A stretch of 64,000 nucleotides of DNA, from contig JADJWH010000001.1 in the NCBI GenBank assembly GCA_016716465.1, positions 685,414 through 749,413 on the forward strand, written 5' to 3'. A program made the position numbers and the translations under genes. Shown one piece after another: positions 2,763 to 60,188 of this stretch (within the stretch, counting starts at the first letter, position 1; the number at the start of each line of letters is the position of its first letter). This stretch comes from Gammaproteobacteria bacterium. GTDB lineage: Bacteria > Pseudomonadota > Gammaproteobacteria > SZUA-140. The notes beneath the pieces were generated by a model, which was not told the DNA's origin, did not search any database, and saw only the letters and a list, made by a program, of their open reading frames with translations.

Positions 2763-4466
2763 GTGACTACGATACTGCGGCGCGCGTACGCGGAGATGTA
2801 CGGGCCCACGGTCGGCGACCGTGTCCGGCTGGGGGATACCGAGCTCTGGCTCGAGGTCGAGCAGGACCGCACGGTCTACGGCGAGGAGGTCAAGTTCGGC
2901 GGCGGCAAGGTCATTCGCGACGGCATGGGCCAGAGCCAGGCCAGCGCGAAACAGGTGGTCGATTGCGTCATCACCAACGCGCTGATCGTGGACCACTGGG
3001 GCATCGTCAAGGCGGATATCGGCCTCAAGGACGGGCGCATCGCGGGCATTGGCAAGGCGGGCAACCCCGATGTCCAGCCCGGGATCGATATCGTCATCGG
3101 TCCCGGCACCGAGGTCATCGCCGGCGAGGGCCTGATCGCGACCGCCGGCGGCATCGATGCCCACATCCACTTCATCTGCCCGCAACAGGTGGAGGACGCG
3201 CTGATGTCCGGCGTCACCACCATGATCGGTGGCGGCACCGGACCGGCGGCCGGCACCAACGCCACCACCTGCACGCCGGGGCCGTGGAATATCGCCCGGA
3301 TGCTGCAGGCCGCGGATGTGCTGCCGATGAACCTCGGTTTTCTCGGCAAGGGCAACGCAAGCCTGCCGCAAGCCCTGGAAGAGCAGGTCGCCGCCGGGGC
3401 GATGGGTCTGAAACTGCATGAGGACTGGGGCACGACGCCCGCCGCGATCGACAACTGCCTGGAGGTGGCGGAAAAGTACGACGTGCAGGTCGCCATCCAC
3501 ACCGATACTTTGAACGAGTCGGGTTTCGTCGAGGATACGCTCGCCGCCTTCAAGGGGCGCACCATTCATACCTATCACACCGAAGGCGCCGGCGGTGGCC
3601 ACGCGCCGGACATCATCAAGGCCTGCGGTGAGGCCAATGTGCTGCCGTCGTCCACCAATCCGACGCGCCCCTATACGGTGAACACGGTCGACGAGCACCT
3701 CGACATGCTGATGGTATGCCATCACCTCGATCCGGGCATTCCGGAGGATGTCGCCTTCGCCGAGTCGCGCATCCGGCGCGAGACCATCGCCGCGGAAGAC
3801 ATCCTGCACGACCTCGGCGCCTTCTCGATGATCAGTTCGGATTCGCAGGCCATGGGCCGCGTCGGCGAGGTGATCACGCGCACCTGGCAGACGGCGCACA
3901 AGATGAAGGTCCAGCGCGGCGCGCTCGCGGGCGATCCCGCGCGCCACGATAATGGACGCATCAAACGCTACGTCGCCAAATACACCATCAATCCGGCGAT
4001 CGCCCACGGCGTCGCCGCCGATGTCGGCTCGATCGAGACCGGAAAGCTCGCCGACATCGTGCTGTGGCGCCCGGCCTTCTTCGGCGCCAAACCGTCGCTG
4101 ATCCTCAAGGGCGGCCTGATCGCCGCCGCGCCTATGGGCGACCCCAATGCCTCAATCCCGACGCCGCAACCGGTGCACTATCGACCCATGTTCGCCGCCC
4201 TCGGCGGGGCCTGCGCCGCGACCAGCGTGACTTTCGTGTCGCAGGCCGCGCAGCAGTCGGCGGTCGGCAGTCGCCTGGGCCTCAGGAAGCGCACGGTGCC
4301 GGTGTCCGGGACCCGCAATATCGGCAAGGCCGATATGATCCACAACGATTACCGGCCGCGGATGGAAGTCGATGCGCAGACCTACCAGGTGCGTGCCGAC
4401 GGTGAGTTGCTGGTATGCGATCCGATGAGCGTGCTGCCACTGGCGCAGCGGTATTTTCTGTTTTGA
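2763..4466 (+). CDS. ureC: Urease alpha subunit (GTG start)
   Basis: [29 protein letters not shown]...[13 protein letters not shown]...MVCHHLD. The long upstream frame from 2544 overlaps ureB; GTG 2763 directly follows the ureB stop. Confidence 0.95.
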
Positions 4467-5810: not shown

Positions 5811-5836
5811 GGGGACAGATTTATAAATCTGTCCCC
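5811..5836. repeat. 25-bp palindromic REP-like element GGGGACAGATTT-N-AAATCTGTCCCC
   Basis: ggggacagatttataaatctgtcccc, in the ureF-ureG spacer. Confidence 0.8.
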
Positions 5837-6494: not shown

Positions 6495-6644
6495 CAGGAC
6501 CAGGGACTAAGCAACAGTAGATCCCGCTGATTACGGAGGGAGGGTTGGCCTAGATACTGCGTGGAGATAGAGAGTGTTAAGTCCCCGGATTCCGCTGCGC
6601 TCCATCCGGGCTACAGTTTAATATTTTAATTAGTCCGGGTCCTG
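6495..6644. repeat. Composite intergenic structure: a GGACTAA-family inverted pair flanking a CCCGGATT...ATCCGGG hairpin repeat (6573-6604)
   Basis: caggaccagggactaagc ... ttagtccgggtcctg; the inner element is ccccggattccgctgcgctccatccgggctac. Confidence 0.4.
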
Positions 6645-9010: not shown

Positions 9011-9035
9011 GGGGACAGATTTGAAATCTGTCCCC
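9011..9035. repeat. 25-bp palindromic REP-like element
   Basis: ggggacagatttgaaatctgtcccc. Confidence 0.8.
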
Positions 9036-11895: not shown

Positions 11896-12975
11896 CTAGA
11901 GATTGCCGTCCGCCGCCATCTTCATGTAGGCCGAGGTGAAGCGCAGCTTGACGTTGCCCTTGTCGCCGAGCAACTTGTCACCGGGGAAGCTGATCCCGAC
12001 CGCATCGACGCTGCGCGCACCCTCGCCGAGGATCCCGTGGTCGAAGGAAAATGTGCGCACATGGTCCATGGTCTGGATCAGATCCGCACTGTCGGTGAAC
12101 TTCACCGCGTCGGCGGCGGCATAGAACATCTTGGTGGTCTTGAGCTGGCTGTCATAGCCGGCGAGATCGGTGCCGGAGGCCTGGCCCATGTGGGTCCGCG
12201 CCGCGGCGCCCGCCGCATCCTTGGCGGACATCAACGCCATCGTCTCGTACCAGGCGCCGGTGAGCGCCTTGCCGAGGGCCGGATTGGCGCTGAGCGTCGC
12301 GCTGTTCACCACCATCATATCGATGATCTCGCCGGGGATCTGGCTGGAATCGAAGACGGGTTTGGCGCCCGGCATGGCCGTGACTTCGCTCAGCTGCGGG
12401 TTCCAGGTGACCAGGGCGGTGACATCCGGCGAGGAAAAGGCGGCAACGATATCGGCGTCGGAGGTATTGACTACGGTGATGTCCTTCTCCTTCAGACTGA
12501 CCGTATCGAGCGCGCGCGCGAGCAGATAATGCGAGACCGAGAGCTCGACCAGATTGACCTTCCTGCCCTTGATGTCCTTCAGTGCGGCGGCGTTCTTCAG
12601 GATGATGCCGTCGTTGCCGTTGGAGAAGTCGCCGACGATCAGGGCGGTGGAATCGACGCCGCCGGCGGCCGGGATGGTCAGGGCGTCCATGTTGGTCATC
12701 ACGCAGCCGTCGAAGGCGCCGGCGGTGTACTGATTGATGGATTCAATGTAGTCGTTGATCTGCACCACCTCGATATCGATGCCGTACTTGTCGGCCCATT
12801 TCTTCACGATGCCCTGGCTGGCGGCGTATTCCCACGGCATCCACCCGACGTAGATGCTCCATGCGACGCGGAACTTGGTCTTCTCGGCGGCGAGCGCGCC
12901 GGGGGCGGCGCCGAACATCAGGAGGGCGAAGGCGAGCAGCAATGCGGATACGGCGGAAACTCTGGACGTTTTCAT
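11896..12975 (-). CDS. ABC transporter periplasmic substrate-binding protein (NitT/TauT family); candidate guanidine-binding protein
   Basis: Signal peptide MKTSRVSAVSALLLAFALLMFGAAPGALA. AAGGGGA Shine-Dalgarno sequence before the ATG (reverse complement of 12973-12975). It sits downstream of a guanidine-I riboswitch. Confidence 0.85.
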   Translation of the reverse strand: MKTSRVSAVSALLLAFALLMFGAAPGALAAEKTKFRVAWSIYVGWMPWEYAASQGIVKKWADKYGIDIEVVQINDYIESINQYTAGAFDGCVMTNMDALTIPAAGGVDSTALIVGDFSNGNDGIILKNAAALKDIKGRKVNLVELSVSHYLLARALDTVSLKEKDITVVNTSDADIVAAFSSPDVTALVTWNPQLSEVTAMPGAKPVFDSSQIPGEIIDMMVVNSATLSANPALGKALTGAWYETMALMSAKDAAGAAARTHMGQASGTDLAGYDSQLKTTKMFYAAADAVKFTDSADLIQTMDHVRTFSFDHGILGEGARSVDAVGISFPGDKLLGDKGNVKLRFTSAYMKMAADGNL

Positions 12976-13137
12976 ATTTTCCCCTTGAGCTGTCAGTTCT
13001 GTTGCGTCAGACCGAGTGCCGGGGAGGTATGCGCCGAGACGGACCGGAGAAGCCGGCAGGCACCGTCAGGACATCACACATCCGCGGCCTGTGCCTCCCG
13101 GGCTTTTATCCCGCCGTGTATCCGAGCTCTCCGAACC

Positions 13138-13166
13138 GGGGACAGATTTATTTATCCGATCTGTCC
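13138..13166. repeat. Degenerate REP-like palindrome inside riboswitch 2 (P2-region hairpin)
   Basis: ggggacagatttatttatccgatctgtcc. Confidence 0.5.
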
Positions 13167-13216
13167 GCGTGTCGTGCCGCCCGGACTGCATCCCTTGGAC
13201 CAGCCATCCCTGGGAA

Positions 13217-13241
13217 CGGGGACAGATTTAAAATCTGTCCC
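13217..13241. repeat. 25-bp REP-like palindrome forming the P1a-position hairpin of riboswitch 2
   Basis: ggggacagatttaaaatctgtcccc, directly downstream of CUAGGGUUCCGG on the minus strand. Confidence 0.8.
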
Positions 13242-13600
13242 CGGTACAAGAGACCGGAACCCTAGATGCTCTGAACAGGGTTTAGCAATTAGCATGCCGC
13301 GCCCATGGGCAAGGCCTGTGGCGCGAGCTAACAGATTGACTGTTCTTGCATTCGCCTGTGCGATCTTCACCGTGGCTCGCGCATGACTGAGCCCGCGCGA
13401 CAGTCCGTCGCGAATAATTGCCCCATCATGGTGAGGCGACACTTCGAAATGCGCGGAAATGGTGCCTGATAAGCGAGTCAGGGCCGGGCGCACGGCGCGT
13501 GTTCCGCGGGAATCCGTGCCGGCATTCCATCATCGAACTGTTGGCTATTCCATCACTTAGCCGATGGCACGCATTGTCCCGGTTCATGCCTGGTGCAGGA

Positions 13601-13616
13601 TGGTACGCCGCTTGCA
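13601..13616 (+). promoter_or_regulatory. Sigma-54-type promoter candidate (TGGTAC-N5-TTGCA) driving the gdmH leader
   Basis: GG-N10-GC spacing is exact and the -12 TTGCA is perfect, with one mismatch at -24. The predicted transcription start lies ~40 nt before the aptamer. Confidence 0.35.
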
Positions 13617-13666
13617 ATCTCACAGGGCAAGCGGCCATGGCCGCGATAATCAGCCTATCAGGATGA

Positions 13667-13793
13667 CTAGGGTTCCGGTTCCGCGTGGTACGCGGGGACA
13701 GATGTAAATCCGTCCCCGATGGCGATGCGGGGCGACTGGTCCGAGAGTCATCGGCCTCCGGCGCGGAGGTTACACGGCGGGATAAAAGCCCGG
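13667..13793 (+). promoter_or_regulatory. Guanidine-I (ykkC-type) riboswitch aptamer in the gdmH leader
   Basis: CUAGGGUUCCGG ... GGUCCGAGAG ... ACACGGCGGGAUAAAAGCCCGGGAGAG. All three hallmark ykkC blocks are present in the correct order. Confidence 0.8.
13694..13717. repeat. REP-like palindrome (one arm mismatch) embedded in the P1a-position hairpin of riboswitch 1
   Basis: ggggacagatgtaaatccgtcccc. Confidence 0.6.
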
Positions 13794-13817
13794 GAGAGCA
13801 GGCCTCTCTCGACTTTT
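13794..13817 (+). terminator. Riboswitch expression-platform intrinsic terminator
   Basis: gagagcaggcctctctc followed by gacTTTTGTT. The 5' half overlaps the aptamer 3' end (CCCGGGAGAG), the classic ligand-ON arrangement. Confidence 0.5.
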
Positions 13818-13850
13818 GTTCAACGGTAACCGTTCAGACCAGGAGGACAC

Positions 13851-15044
13851 ATGGCCGATTTTTCCCGATACCGTTCCCGTACGCTGAAACCTTCGCTGCG
13901 CAATCCGGCGCACCGGCACCACCCCTCGTTCGACAAGACCCAGCTGCATGGCTGGAAGGCCGCGCACAAAGAGGCCGAACTGTCACATAGCGGCTGGGAC
14001 GCGGAGGAAAGGCGCTGTCTGGAGCTCGGACTGCCGGGTGCGGACAGCATCCAGGACAAATCGATCCCCACCTTCGCCCGCGGCGAGCTGCCGCACTATG
14101 CGGGCATCAACACCTTCATGAAGGCCCCGTACTGCGAGGACATCAAGGATGTCGGCAAGTACGATGCGGCGATCATCGGCGTGCCGTTCGATGGCGGCAC
14201 CACCTACCGGCCCGGCACGCGCTTCGGGCCACAGGGCATCCGGCGCATCTCGGCGCTGTATACGCCCTATAACTACGAACTCGGCGTCGACCTGCGCGAG
14301 CAGATGACCCTGTGCGATACCGGGGACGTGTTCACGATCCCGGCCAATATCGAGAAGACCTTCGACCAGATCAGTCGCGCGGTCGGTTACGTGTTCGCGA
14401 GCGGGGCGCTGCCGATCATCCTGGGCGGCGACCACTCGATCGGATTCGCCACGGTACGCGGCATCGCGCAGCAGACCGACAAAAAGATCGGCATCATCCA
14501 CTTCGACCGCCACGCCGACATCCAGGAAAAGGATCTCGACGAGCGCATGCACACGACGCCGTGGTTCCATGCCACCAATCTGCCCAACGTGCCGGCGTCC
14601 AATCTGGTGCAGATCGGCATCGGCGGCTGGCAGGTGCCACGCCAGGCGGTGAAGGAGGCGCGCAAGCGCGACACCACGATCATCACGATGAACGACGTGG
14701 AGAAGCTCGGCCTCGACAAGGTGGCGGAGATCGCGCTGGAAACCGCCTGGCACGATGCGGACGCGGTCTATCTGAGCTTCGACATCGACAGCGTGGACGC
14801 CGGCTTCGTGCCGGGCACCGGCTGGCCGGAGCCGGGCGGTTTCCTGCCGCGCGAGATCCTCTATCTATTGGGCATGGTCGCGCGCGAGGGCATCTGCGGC
14901 ATGGAGGTCGTGGAGGTCTCGCCACCCTACGACGTCTCTGACATCACCTCGCTGATGGCGATGCGGGGCATCGTCGACGTGCTCGGCACCCTGGTCGCCC
15001 ACGGCAAGATGGGCGCGCACCGGCACATCATTCGTGGCAGGTGA
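13851..15044 (+). CDS. gdmH: Arginase/agmatinase-family ureohydrolase with a long N-terminal extension; candidate Ni-dependent guanidine hydrolase (GdmH-like)
   Basis: Ureohydrolase motifs GGDHSI, DAHAD-like HFDRHADI, SFDIDSVD. 397 aa. AGGAGG Shine-Dalgarno sequence 5 nt before ATG 13851. Directly downstream of a guanidine-I riboswitch. Confidence 0.75.
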   Translation: MADFSRYRSRTLKPSLRNPAHRHHPSFDKTQLHGWKAAHKEAELSHSGWDAEERRCLELGLPGADSIQDKSIPTFARGELPHYAGINTFMKAPYCEDIKDVGKYDAAIIGVPFDGGTTYRPGTRFGPQGIRRISALYTPYNYELGVDLREQMTLCDTGDVFTIPANIEKTFDQISRAVGYVFASGALPIILGGDHSIGFATVRGIAQQTDKKIGIIHFDRHADIQEKDLDERMHTTPWFHATNLPNVPASNLVQIGIGGWQVPRQAVKEARKRDTTIITMNDVEKLGLDKVAEIALETAWHDADAVYLSFDIDSVDAGFVPGTGWPEPGGFLPREILYLLGMVAREGICGMEVVEVSPPYDVSDITSLMAMRGIVDVLGTLVAHGKMGAHRHIIRGR

Positions 15045-15093: not shown

Positions 15094-15121
15094 GGGGACA
15101 GATTTAATCAAATCTGTCCCC
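15094..15121. repeat. REP-like palindrome (28-bp variant)
   Basis: ggggacagatttaatcaaatctgtcccc, 50 bp past the gdmH stop. Confidence 0.8.
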
Positions 15122-15136
15122 GTTCATGCGCAGATG

Positions 15137-15208
15137 GAGCGCAGCGGAATCCGGGGATCAATTGATTGTTCCCCGGATTCCGGCGCGTTGCGCCTTCATC
15201 CGGGCTAC
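15137..15208. repeat. Inverted pair of CCCGGATTCCG(C/G)...ATCCGGGCTAC hairpin repeats
   Basis: gagcgcagcggaatccgggg, then the atcaattgat palindrome, then ccccggattccggcgcgttgcgccttcatccgggctac. Confidence 0.45.
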
Positions 15209-19498: not shown

Positions 19499-20629
19499 AT
19501 GCTGTCACGCGGACTCGTACGCAGCCTGCTCGAAAGCGATCGCGGCGGACAGATATTCCTGCTCATCCTGGCCGCCGTCGCGGTGGCGATCCCGGTGGCC
19601 AACCTGCTGATCCCGGAGGGCTCGCCGCTGCATCTCTCCGCCTACACGGTCACGCTGTTCGGGAAATACCTGTGCTATGCGCTGCTGGCGCTGGCGCTCG
19701 ACCTGATCTGGGGCTATTGCGGCATCCTGAGCCTGGGGCACGGCGCCTTCTTCGCCCTGGGCGGCTACGCCATGGGCATGTACCTGATGCGCCAGATCGG
19801 CGACCGCGGCGTGTACGGCGATCCGGTGCTGCCGGATTTCATGGTGTTCCTCAACTGGCAGGAACTGCCGTGGTACTGGTTCGGCTTCGACCAGTTCTGG
19901 TTCGCGCTGGCCATGATCGTGCTGGTGCCGGGCCTGCTGGCCTTCGTGTTCGGCTGGTTCGCCTTCCGGTCGCGGGTCACCGGCGTCTATCTGTCGATCA
20001 TCACCCAGGCGCTGACCTTCGCGCTGATGCTCGCCTTCTTCCGCAACGACATGGGCTTCGGCGGCAACAACGGCCTGACCGACTTCAAGGACATCCTCGG
20101 CTTCAATCTCCAGTCGGACGCGACCCGCGTGGTCCTGTTCCTGGCCTCGGCGCTGGCGCTCGCGGCCGGTTATCTGGCCTGCCGCTATATCGTGAACTCC
20201 AAGCTTGGGCGCGTGGTGGTGGCGGTGCGCGACGCCGAAAGCCGCGCGCGCTTCATCGGTTACCGGGTCGAGCACTACAAGCTGTGGGTATTCGTGTTCT
20301 CGGCGATACTGGCGGGCATCGCGGGCGCGCTCTACGTGCCGCAGGTCGGCATCATCAACCCGAGCGAATTCTCGCCGCTGAACTCGATCGAACTGGTGGT
20401 GTGGGTCGCCGTTGGCGGGCGCGGCACGCTCTATGGGGCGGTGCTCGGCGCCGTGCTGGTGAATTACGCTAAGACCTGGTTCACCACCGAGTTCCCGGAG
20501 GTGTGGCTGTTCGCGCTCGGCGGCCTGTTCGTGTTGGTGACCATCCTGATGCCGCGCGGGATCGTCGGCCTGTTCGCGAAGCTGCGCGGCGGAAAAGGCG
20601 CGGTGCGCAAGGCGAAGGAGGCGACATGA
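19499..20629 (+). CDS. urtC: Urea ABC transporter permease
   Basis: LivM-type permease: ILSLGHGAFFALGGYAMGMYLM. Confidence 0.85.
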   Translation: MLSRGLVRSLLESDRGGQIFLLILAAVAVAIPVANLLIPEGSPLHLSAYTVTLFGKYLCYALLALALDLIWGYCGILSLGHGAFFALGGYAMGMYLMRQIGDRGVYGDPVLPDFMVFLNWQELPWYWFGFDQFWFALAMIVLVPGLLAFVFGWFAFRSRVTGVYLSIITQALTFALMLAFFRNDMGFGGNNGLTDFKDILGFNLQSDATRVVLFLASALALAAGYLACRYIVNSKLGRVVVAVRDAESRARFIGYRVEHYKLWVFVFSAILAGIAGALYVPQVGIINPSEFSPLNSIELVVWVAVGGRGTLYGAVLGAVLVNYAKTWFTTEFPEVWLFALGGLFVLVTILMPRGIVGLFAKLRGGKGAVRKAKEAT

Positions 20630-23701: not shown

Positions 23702-23727
23702 GGGGACAGATTTCAAAATCTGTCCCC
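23702..23727. repeat. 25-bp REP-like palindrome
   Basis: ggggacagatttcaaaatctgtcccc. Confidence 0.8.
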
Positions 23728-25021: not shown

Positions 25022-25095
25022 GGGGACAGATTTAATTTTTGCTCGGGATTCCGCATTTTACACGGGGCACATCTTCAAAAATAAAATCTGTCCCC
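25022..25095. repeat. 74-bp long-loop variant of the REP-like element (the same terminal inverted arms around a ~45-bp core)
   Basis: aaatggggacagatttaatttttg...caaaaataaaatctgtccccattt. Confidence 0.7.
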
Positions 25096-26294: not shown

Positions 26295-26319
26295 GGGGAC
26301 AGATTTGAAATCTGTCCCC
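26295..26319. repeat. 25-bp REP-like palindrome
   Basis: ggggacagatttgaaatctgtcccc, preceded by the short direct repeat g(c/t)gg(t/c)cttgagcgggga. Confidence 0.8.
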
Positions 26320-28947: not shown

Positions 28948-29071
28948 GGGGACAGATTTATTTTTAACGGAATGCTCTCAAAAAAATGGCAGGAAATGGG
29001 GACAGATTTAATTTTTGACCGGAGACTGTTCACTGAACGGAGGTCATCTCACAAAGATAAAATCTGTCCCC
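28948..29071. repeat. Nested cluster of REP-like elements: a partial left arm with core (28948-28997) plus a complete 74-bp long-loop copy (28998-29071)
   Basis: Two aaatggggacagattta left arms and one aaaatctgtccccatttt right arm. The core is ~60% identical to the 25022 copy. Confidence 0.7.
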
Positions 29072-43362: not shown

Positions 43363-43442
43363 GCCGGAAAAGATACAGGAAAACCCGCTGAAAACACAGG
43401 ACCGAGGGATGAACAAAATGCCGCCCGAATACAGGCGCGGAG

Positions 43443-43502
43443 CGCCGGAATCCGGGGGCCGTGGACCTGATCCCGGATTTCGCTGCGCTGCATCCGGGCT
43501 AC
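43443..43502. repeat. Inverted pair of CCCGGATT...ATCCGGGCTAC hairpin repeats
   Basis: cgccggaatccggggg ... tcccggatttcgctgcgctgcatccgggctac. Confidence 0.45.
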
Positions 43503-55557: not shown

Positions 55558-56640
55558 ATGTCCGACGAAGACCTGCTGAAAACCATCCGCGCCCGCATCG
55601 ATCAGATCGACGGGAAGCTGCAGGAGCTGATCACCGAGCGGGCGCGATGCGCGCTCGAGGTGGCGCGGCTCAAGCATGCCTCCGGCGATATGGATTACTA
55701 TCGGCCGGAGCGCGAGGCGCAGGTGCTGCAGACGGTGCTCGGTCGCAACCAGGGGCCGCTCGACGACGAAGTGGTGGTGCGCCTGTTCCGCGAGATCATG
55801 TCTGCCTGCCTGGCGCTGCAGCGCCCGATCGCCGTGGCCTATCTCGGACCGGAAGGCACCTTCACCGAGGCCGCGGTATTCAAGCATTTTGGCCAGGCGG
55901 TGAGCGCGCGCCCGCTGGCCGCCATCGACGAGGTCTTCCGCGACGTCGAAGCAGGCGCCGTGGATTACGGTGTGGTTCCGATCGAAAACTCCTCCGAGGG
56001 GGCGGTCGATCACACGCTCGACATGTTCATGAGTTCTCCGCTGAAGATCTGCAGCGAGATCGAGTTGCGTATTCATCACAATCTGATGGGCAAGGCGGAC
56101 GCGACGGGCGGGATCAATCGTGTCTATGCGCACCAGATGGCCCTGGCGCAGTGCCGCGAATGGCTCAACGCGCACCTCTCCGGCGTCGAATGCATCCCGG
56201 TCAGCAGCAACGCCGAGGCCGCGCGTCGGGCGCAGGAGGAAGCGGGCGCGGCCGCGATCGCCGGCACCAACGCGGCCGCCATCTACGGCCTGGAGATTCT
56301 CTCGTCCAATATCGAGGACAAGCCGGACAACACGACCCGCTTCCTGGTGATCGGTCGCAAAATCCCCGCGCCGAGCGGACGCGACAAGACTTCCCTGCTG
56401 GTCTCCACGTCCAACAAGCCCGGCGCGCTTTATCGCCTGCTGAAACCCCTGGCTGAACACGGGATTTCCATGAGCCGTATCGAATCGCGGCCTTCCCGGC
56501 GCGAGATGTGGGAATATGTCTTTTTCATCGACATCGAGGGCCATGCCCAGGACGAGAAGGTGGCGGCGGTCATCCGGATCCTGGAAAATGAGGCGGCTGT
56601 GCTCAAGGTGCTGGGTTCGTACCCCTGCGCCGTGTTGTAG
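55558..56640 (+). CDS. pheA: Bifunctional chorismate mutase / prephenate dehydratase
   Basis: MSDEDLLKTIRARIDQIDGKLQELI (chorismate mutase domain)...prephenate dehydratase domain...ACT domain. Confidence 0.9.
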   Translation: MSDEDLLKTIRARIDQIDGKLQELITERARCALEVARLKHASGDMDYYRPEREAQVLQTVLGRNQGPLDDEVVVRLFREIMSACLALQRPIAVAYLGPEGTFTEAAVFKHFGQAVSARPLAAIDEVFRDVEAGAVDYGVVPIENSSEGAVDHTLDMFMSSPLKICSEIELRIHHNLMGKADATGGINRVYAHQMALAQCREWLNAHLSGVECIPVSSNAEAARRAQEEAGAAAIAGTNAAAIYGLEILSSNIEDKPDNTTRFLVIGRKIPAPSGRDKTSLLVSTSNKPGALYRLLKPLAEHGISMSRIESRPSRREMWEYVFFIDIEGHAQDEKVAAVIRILENEAAVLKVLGSYPCAVL

Positions 56641-56710
56641 GGGACGGACTGAAGTCCGTCCCCATGAACGCTCATAAACTGAGTCGGGGACGGATTTGAG
56701 ATCCGTCCCC
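56640..56710. repeat. Two REP-like palindromes carrying compensatory arm substitutions (GGGGACGGA...TCCGTCCCC)
   Basis: ggggacggactgaagtccgtcccc and ggggacggatttgagatccgtcccc. An A-to-G change in the left arm is matched by a T-to-C change in the right arm. Confidence 0.75.
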
Positions 56711-58693: not shown

Positions 58694-58764
58694 TTAGGTG
58701 ATGAGTGAAGGGTGATGGGTGATCATAACCAGTTCATTGACCCATCACCCATCACCCATAACCA
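58694..58764. repeat. GGTGATG heptamer-array hairpin between tyrA and aroA
   Basis: ttaggtgatgagtgaagggtgatgggtgatcataacc ... gacccatcacccatcacccataacc. Confidence 0.65.
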
Positions 58765-58778
58765 TCTTCAAAGTTGCA

Positions 58779-60188
58779 ATGACGACTAAAGAACATATCT
58801 TCGACATCACCCCCGGCGGCCGCCTGAGCGGTGAAATCCGCGTTCCCGGCGACAAGTCGATTTCGCACCGCTCCATCATGTTCGGCTCGCTGGCCGAGGG
58901 AGTCACCGAGGTGGAGGGGTTCCTGGAGGGTGAGGACAGCCTGGCGACACTGGCGGCGTTCCGCCGCATGGGTGTCGCCATCGACGGGCCGGCACAGGGG
59001 CGGGTCACCATTCGCGGCGCAGGCATGCGCGGGCTGAGTGCGCCCGACGGCCCGCTCGATCTGGGCAATTCCGGGACCTCGATGCGCCTGATGGCCGGGC
59101 TGTTGTCCGCGCAGTCCTTCGATACTGAACTGACCGGCGACGCCTCGCTGTCGCGCCGGCCGATGCGCCGGGTGACACAACCGCTGGCATCGATGGGCGC
59201 GCGTATCGAGACGGAGGCCGCGGGCACGCCGCCGCTGCGCATTCGCGGCGGATCGCCGCTGCGCGGCATACGCTACGACATGCCGGTCGCAAGCGCCCAG
59301 GTCAAATCCGCGCTGCTGCTGGCCGGGCTCTATGCCGACGGCGAGACCTGCGTGACCGAGCCCGCGCCCACGCGCGATCACACCGAACGCATGCTGACCG
59401 CCTTCGGTTATCTGGTCACGCGCCACCACAACACCGTCTGCGTGAAGGGCGGAGGGCGGCTCAATCCGACCCGCATTGCGATCCCGGCGGATATTTCCTC
59501 GGCGGCGTTCTTCCTGGTCGGAGCCGCGATTGCGCCGGGGTCCGACGCGACGCTGACCGATGTCGGCATCAATCCGACGCGCATCGGCGTGATCAACATC
59601 CTGCAGCAGATGGGCGCGCGCATCGATATCCTCAACAAGCGCATGTTCGGCGGCGAACCGGTGGCCGACCTGCGCGTGCGCGCGGGCATGCTCAAGGGCA
59701 TCGACATCCCGATCGAGCAGGTCCCGCTGGCGATCGATGAATTTCCCGCACTCTTCATCGCCGCGGCCTGCGCCGAAGGCCGGACGGTGCTGACCGGCGC
59801 GGAGGAACTGCGCGTCAAGGAAAGCGACCGCATCCAGGTCATGGCCGACGGCCTGCGGCGGCTGGGCGTCATGGCCGAGCCGACGCCGGACGGGATTGTC
59901 ATCGAAGGGAAGGGCGTAGCCGGTGCCAAGGGGACAGATTTAAAATCTGTCCCCAATGGCGCAACTTCTGTCCCCGAACATCAGGCGGTATTTTCCGGTG
60001 GTGAGGTCGAGAGCCACGGCGATCACCGCATCGCGATGGCCTTCGCGGTGGCCGGCTTTCGTGCCGCAGGCCCGATTCGCATCCGCGACTGCAAGAATGT
60101 GGATACCTCGTTCCCGGGGTTCGTGGGACTGGCGCGGAAATCCGGATTAAAAATCAAAACACAGGACTTAGGACTCGGGACTGAGTGA
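58779..60188 (+). CDS. aroA: 3-phosphoshikimate 1-carboxyvinyltransferase (EPSP synthase) carrying an in-frame ~24-aa repeat-derived insertion
   Basis: ITPGGRLSGEIRVPGDKSISHRSIMFGSLA...SHGDHRIAMAF. The insertion KGTDLKSVPNGATSVP is encoded by a REP copy. The last 8 codons and the stop are encoded by a heptamer array. Confidence 0.9.
   Translation: MTTKEHIFDITPGGRLSGEIRVPGDKSISHRSIMFGSLAEGVTEVEGFLEGEDSLATLAAFRRMGVAIDGPAQGRVTIRGAGMRGLSAPDGPLDLGNSGTSMRLMAGLLSAQSFDTELTGDASLSRRPMRRVTQPLASMGARIETEAAGTPPLRIRGGSPLRGIRYDMPVASAQVKSALLLAGLYADGETCVTEPAPTRDHTERMLTAFGYLVTRHHNTVCVKGGGRLNPTRIAIPADISSAAFFLVGAAIAPGSDATLTDVGINPTRIGVINILQQMGARIDILNKRMFGGEPVADLRVRAGMLKGIDIPIEQVPLAIDEFPALFIAAACAEGRTVLTGAEELRVKESDRIQVMADGLRRLGVMAEPTPDGIVIEGKGVAGAKGTDLKSVPNGATSVPEHQAVFSGGEVESHGDHRIAMAFAVAGFRAAGPIRIRDCKNVDTSFPGFVGLARKSGLKIKTQDLGLGTE
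59930..59975. repeat. REP-like palindrome plus a duplicated right arm, inserted in-frame within aroA
   Basis: ggggacagatttaaaatctgtcccc aatggcgcaa cttctgtcccc. Confidence 0.8.
60162..60187. repeat. GGACTNA heptamer array encoding the aroA C-terminus and stop
   Basis: caggacttaggactcgggactgagtga reads Q D L G L G T E stop. Confidence 0.6.

Follow-up and report, generated by a model that had tools for sequence, protein, structure and literature searches.

A multi-copy palindrome at the hairpin tips of two guanidine-I riboswitches in a gammaproteobacterial genome

In a 64,000-nucleotide stretch of the genome of a Gammaproteobacteria bacterium (assembly GCA_016716465.1, contig JADJWH010000001.1, positions 685,414 to 749,413; the whole of this stretch is referred to as the window), three copies of a short dispersed palindrome are found at the hairpin tips of two guanidine-I riboswitch aptamers. 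Very probably the palindrome is a selfish multi-copy element that was inserted into the tips of the riboswitch hairpins, was tolerated there as an extension of the helix, and has had its pairing maintained since. Riboswitch aptamers are usually regarded as compact and tightly constrained RNAs. That two of them took up three foreign hairpins of ~31-51 nt and were themselves still conserved afterwards amounts to a natural experiment on the positions that are free in the guanidine-I aptamer.

Two guanidine-I aptamers with extended hairpins

Both Guanidine-I (ykkC) aptamers were identified by an Rfam cmscan search within an 875-nt region between two divergent genes (positions 12976-13850). They cover positions 1-107 of the 107 in the RF00442 model, are untruncated, and score above the gathering score of 63. 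The conserved blocks of the family (CUAGGGUUCCG, GGUCCGAGAG and ACACGGCGGGAUAAAAGCCCGGGAG) are all present, and the minus-strand aptamer has GGUCCAAGGG. The plus-strand aptamer precedes a gene for an arginase-family protein, labelled 'agmatinase family protein' in the source records. The minus-strand aptamer precedes an ABC-transporter operon in which an NMT1-like gene is followed by genes for a permease, an ATPase and an M16 peptidase, in an order identical to that in L202, a relative described below. The linkage of guanidine-I aptamers to such genes recurs in ~75 related loci. Judged by the gathering score, the retained blocks and the typical gene context, both aptamers in the window are bona fide members of RF00442. 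They are, however, longer (143 nt on the plus strand and 184 nt on the minus strand) than most: 68 of the 76 aptamers found with our own covariance model (R1) have a length of 98-128 nt.

Three inserts were left unaligned by cmscan, namely 42 nt in the apical loop of P1b in the plus aptamer, 35 nt in P1b of the minus aptamer and 49 nt in P2 of the minus aptamer, and each contains one palindrome (Table 1). An earlier note, made from the letters of the window, had placed three copies of the repeat at variable stem-loops of the riboswitches. All three are indeed within the cmscan inserts at the tips of P1b and P2: the P1b copy stands between CUAGGGUUCCGG and the GGUCC block in both aptamers, and the copy described as degenerate is found in P2 of the minus aptamer.

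Related crystal structures show P1, P1a, P1b and P2 stacked coaxially without a break and the P3 loop docked into P1a (PMC6031431). By analogy, the P1b and P2 loops would be the two far ends of the stack, and their extension should spare the ligand pocket. For five of the six aptamers of the window, L202 and the closest relative, L001, the predicted minimum free energy (MFE) structure has the canonical helices P1/P1a/P1b/P2/P3, the palindrome being stacked on the tip. The sixth, the minus aptamer of the window, adopts the canonical fold as its MFE structure when a 307-nt context is folded. In the plus aptamer, a terminator-like hairpin overlaps the 3' strand of P3 (Table 1) and is likely to be the expression platform of this riboswitch. 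Its stem differs at one base between the window and L001, within a leader that is 94% identical.

In order to compare orthologous leaders we used the arginase-family protein as an anchor, which gave 80 loci from GTDB species representatives; 3 more loci were obtained by exact-protein look-ups. L001 has 85% nucleotide identity to the window across 9 kb, and it is the only locus with all three inserts at the same loops. Its P1b copy on the plus strand is a perfect 24-mer, its P2 copy is degenerate, and its P1b copy on the minus strand is a compensated variant, GGCGACAGATTT..AAATCTGTCGCC (GGCGAC...GTCGCC), in which one G-C pair is flipped to C-G. The aptamers of L001 are length outliers as well (143 and 184-186 nt across both genomes). 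L202 is syntenic with the window across 21 kb at 79-86% nucleotide identity, encodes an arginase-family protein with 97% amino acid identity, and serves as an outgroup to the window and L001. Its aptamers, of 110 and 101 nt, have plain loops at all three sites; the P1b loop of the minus aptamer is 5 nt, and P2 reads UCCGG-UUUU-CCGGA, which implies an insert of ~51 nt in the window. The intact palindrome was not found in the 21 kb of L202. Seven further loci (L002, L003, L004, L007, L008, L203 and L204) are likewise without inserts, with aptamers of 99-117 nt, and the palindrome was not found in 955 kb of L002-L080.

Since L202 and the further orthologues have plain loops and only L001 is filled, the palindromes are derived insertions, later than the branching of the L202 lineage and earlier than the separation of the window and L001. 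The earlier note had proposed an alignment of orthologous leaders for deciding this matter, and the hairpin turns out to be present in L001 and absent from L202 and the seven loci named above. It had also considered that the palindrome might be an ancestral sequence specific to the riboswitch. This is not the case in the loci compared: the orthologues have empty sites, and the palindrome is found elsewhere too, in settings such as aroA that have nothing to do with the riboswitch.

Because the inserts predate the split between the window and L001, the divergence between these two reports selection with the inserts in place. Identity is 90-100% in the aptamer cores and 94% in the leaders, which include the expression platforms; in the 379-nt spacer it is 69%. 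For the inserts the values are 69% (P1b of the minus aptamer), 76% (P2) and 91% (P1b of the plus aptamer). As the cores have stayed at 90-100% while the spacer fell to 69%, the riboswitches would seem to have kept working with the inserts, and the inserts would be near-neutral. Covarying P1b stems, together with the G-C to C-G flip in L001, indicate that the pairing of the inserts was retained. Both comparable copies outside the riboswitches (at 9011 and 15094) have decayed in L001 and the three riboswitch copies are still good hairpins there, a comparison of five sites only; the retention fits selection against misfolding once an insert has become part of the helix.

The gene arrangement varies among the relatives. 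Most of them (L012-L080) have a single aptamer, located ~3 kb upstream of the gene for the arginase-family protein; the transporter presumably stands between the two. In the window, L001, L002, L007, L008 and L202-L204 the transporter operon is inverted and a second, paralogous aptamer is present, so that each divergent unit has its own riboswitch. L005 encodes a guanidine-I aptamer (3113-3269, 38.6 bits) that retains P2 and P3 and from which the 5' CUAGGGUUCCGG half is gone; it is probably a disrupted riboswitch. An independent example of a large insertion at one of these positions is the 223-nt guanidine-I aptamer of Denitrobaculum tricleocarpae (L045, 2779-3001), whose P1b tip bears ~115 nt of structured, unrelated sequence. 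No second copy of the ~115-nt insert was found in the sequence examined.

The repeat in the window, in protein genes and in metagenomes

The core of the repeat is cGGGGACAGATTT-N-AAATCTGTCCCCg, a 12+12 inverted repeat with a 27-nt extended consensus. Searching the window for the 25-mer with up to 3 mismatches gave 5 matches against 0.00 expected, and twelve-mer half-sites with up to 2 mismatches number 28 against 2.9 expected. A looser search recovered 13 paired copies and 2 lone halves, with ~0 expected by chance, which makes the ~16 copies of the earlier note a slight overcount; a pair at 19545 was left out of the count as a chance pair. The exact 25-mer accounts for only 4 copies, and in the others the loop is 4-11 nt (usually 5) or 54 nt. 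According to the gene map all copies in the window are intergenic except the one in aroA. Alignment of the sites at 5811, 9011, 15094 and 23702 with L202 did not yield empty-site boundaries, as the spacers there are too diverged. The conserved flanks of the aptamers give clean empty and filled sites, whereas the other sites of the repeat are too diverged to align, and the aptamers are for this reason a good entry point to the spread of the palindrome.

Two of the copies are long variants of 74 bp that have common termini of ~20 nt (ATGGGGACAGATTTAATTTTTG ... AAAATAAAATCTGTCCCCAT) and different 30-nt cores; possibly these represent the element at full length, or a MITE-like form of it, where MITE stands for miniature inverted-repeat transposable element. 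Two adjacent copies share a compensated ACGG/CCGT change, which suggests local duplication or conversion, not independent insertion. A GTAC flank was considered as a target motif in the style of IS200/IS605 and rejected: it is found at only 3 of 12 copies in the window and is absent from the minus-strand P1b copy of L001.

The aroA copy, with a further half-copy, is encoded in frame. The open reading frame (ORF; 58719-60188) matches PF00275 with E = 5.7e-118, and in a phmmer alignment its product carries a 17-residue insertion, AKGTDLKSVPNGATSVP, which falls within a loop when compared with PDB 5buf. GTD.KSVP stands at the same spot in AroA homologues at 84-95% identity, decaying in some of them, and homologues at 76% identity or less, including those of Thioalkalivibrio and Sulfurivermis, are without the insertion.

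Outside the window the exact 25-mer was recovered from at least 120 JGI metagenome stretches (L081-L200) with GC contents from 37.5% to 69.6%; for one 37.5%-GC contig the nearest named homologue is a protein from a Desulfobulbaceae metagenome-assembled genome. Copies within these stretches are in frame in Pfam-confirmed SMC, DnaE, RecC, HdrA-like, GlmS-like and DUF362 ORFs and in a ParB-like ORF that is assigned by sequence only. Ten ORFs besides aroA have Pfam support on both sides of the insert. All three reading frames are used in the coding copies, giving the peptides GTDFKSVP, GDRFxICP and GQISNLSP. Examples of metagenome stretches with in-frame copies are L110, L172, L134, L163, L122, L154, L098, L183 and L091.

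The palindrome is also present in a Marinobacter plasmid and in 12 IMG/VR contigs. One of the latter, the 54-kb contig IMGVR_UViG_3300033489_000011 of a lambda-like phage or prophage (L207, L208 and L214), contains at least 12 exact copies, located between and inside structural genes (portal, S49 protease/scaffold and tail). Phage could thus be a route of spread between hosts; among cultured phage genomes the palindrome was unmatched. The in-frame copies in aroA, SMC, DnaE and RecC, the contigs of 37-70% GC and the phage may outweigh the riboswitch case in importance.

Table 1. Features of the window discussed in the text
Feature	Position	Strand	Remarks
Guanidine-I aptamer before arginase-family gene	13656..13798	+	RF00442, 84.9 bits; own model R1, 90.1 bits
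Guanidine-I aptamer before ABC-transporter operon	13093..13276	-	RF00442, 70.6 bits; R1, 75.0 bits
Palindrome capping P1b of plus aptamer	13694..13717	.	GGGGACAGATGTAAATCCGTCCCC, one A.C mismatch; inside 42-nt insert
Perfect palindrome capping P1b of minus aptamer	13218..13242	.	inside 35-nt insert; 5-nt loop there in L202
Degenerate palindrome extending P2 of minus aptamer	13138..13168	.	11-nt loop, one arm mismatch; inside 49-nt insert
Terminator-like hairpin and T-run, overlapping 3' strand of P3	13791..13811	+	consensus scan: 8-bp stem, then ACTTTTGTTC
Arginase-family gene, under plus riboswitch	13851..15044	+	Pfam PF00491, E = 4.8e-78
NMT1-like periplasmic binding protein gene, first of ABC-transporter operon under minus riboswitch	11896..12975	-	Pfam PF13379/PF09084
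Paired copies of the palindrome (starts)	5811, 9011, 13138, 13218, 13694, 15094, 23702, 25022, 26295, 28998, 56640, 56686, 59930
Lone half-sites	28948, 59964
Intergenic palindrome	5811..5836	.
Palindrome between convergent genes	9011..9035	.	internal deletion in L001
Palindrome just 3' of arginase-family gene	15094..15121	.	absent or decayed in L001
Intergenic palindrome	23702..23727	.
Long variant	25022..25095	.	74 bp, 54-nt core
Intergenic palindrome, exact 25-mer	26295..26319	.
Second long variant	28998..29071	.	74 bp, 54-nt loop; lone half-site at 28948
Two adjacent variant copies	56640..56710	.	both with compensated ACGG/CCGT change
Palindrome and further half-copy, in frame in aroA (EPSP synthase)	59930..59975	+	palindrome itself 59930-59954

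Explanations for the riboswitch insertions

If the palindrome is a tolerated selfish insertion, a multi-copy element would have inserted itself at three apical loops, those of the two P1b hairpins and that of P2 in the minus riboswitch, adding ~31-51 nt between the L202 split and the split of the window and L001. Each insert would fold on itself in the RNA and lengthen its host helix, with the added hairpin pointing into solvent and the guanidine pocket and the P3/terminator switch untouched. Because the P1b and P2 tips would be the far ends of the coaxial stack, the pocket would be spared and the riboswitches would keep working. The inserts would then persist as tolerated passengers with their stem pairing kept, since a broken insert could misfold the aptamer. 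Among tolerance, capture and targeting, tolerance is the simplest reading, because orthologues work without inserts and, for two of the three inserts, the rate of evolution is close to that of the spacer. The earlier note had put forward two possibilities. The one that riboswitch hairpins tolerate insertion fits best, given a genome-wide module, derived insertions and orthologues with plain loops. The other, that a mobile module was captured as a structural element, holds in the weak sense that pairing was kept (the flip in L001), while nothing indicates that the riboswitches need the insert.

A number of results weigh against tolerated insertion of a mobile element. No target-site duplication was detected in 186 copies (the longest k-mer shared by the flanks has a mean of 2.87 against 2.80 +/- 0.11 in shuffled pairs). 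Protein clustering found no transposase or recurrent neighbouring gene in ~0.8 Mb around the copies, and a crude motif scan of the window and 120 loci, which covers 64 kb of the source genome, found no motif resembling a RAYT (REP-associated tyrosine transposase); we infer mobility only from the distribution of the copies. As for the fold, the P1b stem of the plus aptamer in the window contains an A.C mismatch, and in the isolated 184-nt minus aptamer the canonical fold lies 0.9 kcal/mol above a non-canonical MFE structure, with a P1 probability of ~0.35. Residence in riboswitches is not a general habit of the element. In the 20 densest metagenome loci ~71 copies were scanned with Rfam and 0 overlap an Rfam family, the matches there being tRNA and signal recognition particle RNA only. 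Our guanidine-I model found 0 aptamers in 100 palindrome-bearing metagenome loci, and a metagenome scan for CTAGGGTTCCGG followed by the palindrome within 30 nt gave 0 matches. Finally, all three copies of the 875-nt intergenic region are at hairpin tips, with 0 in the 379-nt spacer. Random insertion followed by selection does not fully explain this placement, as insertion into the spacer should also be harmless.

It is this last observation that an alternative based on targeting addresses directly. If an integration machinery or template switching preferred the single-stranded apex of existing DNA or RNA hairpins, three strikes on riboswitch helix tips and none in the spacer would be accounted for. 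Two further observations are in line with it: over ~7 nt outside the core the flanks of the 186 copies are modestly and copy-specifically more complementary than expected (34-46% vs 26%, z = 2-6), and the unrelated ~115-nt insert of Denitrobaculum is at the same P1b tip. The flank complementarity could, however, come from subfamilies with longer arms, many copies are in frame in coding genes, where hairpins are not expected, and the 0 of ~71 metagenome copies in Rfam structured RNA does not favor such a preference. The enrichment of copies in the aptamers (at least 3 of 12 copies in 210 nt of aptamer, P ~0.003 under a null that is uniform over ~8.2 kb of non-coding DNA) is post hoc and only indicative. 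We consider hairpin-loop targeting possible and rather doubtful, and the same holds for the broader proposal that the palindrome is an undescribed broad-host selfish element of 25-27 nt, partly phage-carried and directed at hairpin apices, that survives where a stem-loop or a peptide loop of ~9-17 residues is harmless. If the latter were true, riboswitch helices and essential enzymes alike would have been remodelled by the element, and the conserved aptamers would be the first clean filled- and empty-site footprints of its movement. A different role for selection is assumed if the hairpins have been exapted and are now functional, for instance as folding clamps for P1b and P2, as elements for pausing or RNase protection, or as sites for host factors. 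The well-formed state of the three riboswitch copies in both the window and L001, as opposed to the decay of those at 9011 and 15094 in L001, the compensatory pair flip and the 91% identity of the P1b insert of the plus aptamer against 69% for the spacer all speak for exaptation. That comparison is based on 5 sites, though, and the P2 (76%) and minus-strand P1b (69%) inserts diverge at about the spacer rate. Compensated variants also exist outside riboswitches (56640-56710), and therefore stem maintenance is a property of the element; L202 and at least eight other orthologous loci, moreover, have plain aptamers of 99-117 nt. Exaptation thus seems improbable to us.

The perfect 12+12 inverted repeat has the typical shape of a dimeric operator, and three copies are clustered in one divergent promoter region, so one could suppose that a transcription factor co-regulates the guanidine genes from sites that overlap the riboswitch hairpins by chance. 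These copies are inside transcribed aptamers and not in promoters, however, the orthologous regulons are without the palindrome, and other copies are found between unrelated genes, downstream of genes, in frame in aroA, SMC and DnaE, in unrelated taxa and in phage, which leaves a protein operator very unlikely. We give almost no credence to the idea that this riboswitch lineage had the palindrome as its P1b/P2 sequence from the start and that the other genomic copies stem from there. Its presence in both paralogous aptamers, and nothing more, speaks for it; against it are the empty sites in L202 and all more distant orthologues, the aroA insertion, whose own age shows in its presence in homologues with as little as 84% identity, and the identity of the 25-mer in unrelated organisms.

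Both ends of the P1-P1a-P1b-P2 stack would be free to accept additional sequence. Engineering could draw on this, as could the tuning of covariance models in which such inserts are penalised.

Relation to known repeats and minor features

By analogy, the closest counterparts appear to be the Rickettsia palindromic elements (RPEs), although the resemblance is one of behavior and not of membership. Besides intergenic DNA, RPEs occupy 53 genes, in frame, and the gene for tmRNA in R. bellii (PMC1458961). The element described here is comparable as a selfish palindrome present in intergenic DNA, in frame in housekeeping genes (aroA and ten other ORFs for unrelated proteins) and inside structured RNA (three insertions in two aptamers), and the transposase and mechanism are known for neither. 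RPEs are ~100-150 bp long and confined to Rickettsia, in contrast to the 25-27-nt core and the inserts of ~31-51 nt in our case. With a suitable central base, moreover, any of the three frames of this element can be open; its range covers contigs of 37-70% GC as well as one from a phage; and its host RNAs are riboswitch aptamers, with three insertions. The sequences of the two kinds presumably differ as well. The parallel points to an RPE-like phenomenon well outside Rickettsia.

Repetitive extragenic palindromic (REP) sequences, together with bacterial interspersed mosaic elements (BIMEs) and REPINs mobilised by RAYT transposases of the Y1/HUH type, resemble the element in being short, GC-clamped imperfect palindromes with many copies (here 13 pairs in 64 kb against ~0), mostly intergenic and often just after stop codons, and compensated stem variants are found in both. 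REPs are extragenic, though, whereas this element is also in frame in genes such as aroA, SMC, DnaE and RecC, and REPs are normally species-specific, unlike this 25-mer, which very different genomes contain in identical form. The element is therefore not a classical REP. MITEs (Correia/NEMIS, ERIC, RUP and BOX) are similar in being non-autonomous, in having inverted termini and in forming RNA hairpins able to alter transcripts, and the 74-bp variants of the window look MITE-like. The core is far shorter than a MITE, however, and the combination of terminal inverted repeats with a target-site duplication that characterizes MITEs was not found, as no such duplication was detected in the 186 copies. 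In a 2024 review of MITEs, riboswitches are named only as a conceivable outcome and no aptamer insertion is reported.

Our literature searches turned up no riboswitch aptamer reported to contain a repeat of the REP, MITE or RPE type, and nothing relevant came from searching for the element's sequence and peptide translations as strings. For functional RNAs of another kind, Vioque is said to have described in 1997 (as cited in PMC2858038) STRR repeats (short sequences that recur in tandem) inside the RNase P RNA gene of heterocyst-forming cyanobacteria. There, as here, a short repeat dispersed through the genome occupies a variable helix of a functional RNA that is not destroyed by it; the STRR sequences are tandem heptamers and not a palindrome, and their host is a trans-acting ribozyme and not a cis-regulatory aptamer. 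That selfish palindromes colonise permissive loops of proteins and structural RNAs is known already, and what is new is that the host is a riboswitch, that the element is so small and that it is so widely distributed.

Three other features of the window were observed. A second, unrelated palindromic family (CGGAATCCGGGGA ... TCCCCGGATTCCG) is represented at 15140-15187, 43437-43491 and 6582-6594 in the window and at 7197-7292 in L001; L001 has conserved the copy that lies downstream of the gene for the arginase-family protein. An inverted repeat of GGGTGAT-like heptamers (GGTGATGAGTGAAGGGTGATGGGT / ACCCATCACCCATCACCCATAACC, 58697-58763) is located between aroA and the gene for prephenate dehydrogenase. 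An Rfam match to 5_ureB_sRNA (2912-3198, minus strand, 111.9 bits) is located within the urease structural genes, as it is in L004 and L010, and probably reflects conserved urease coding sequence, not a small RNA.

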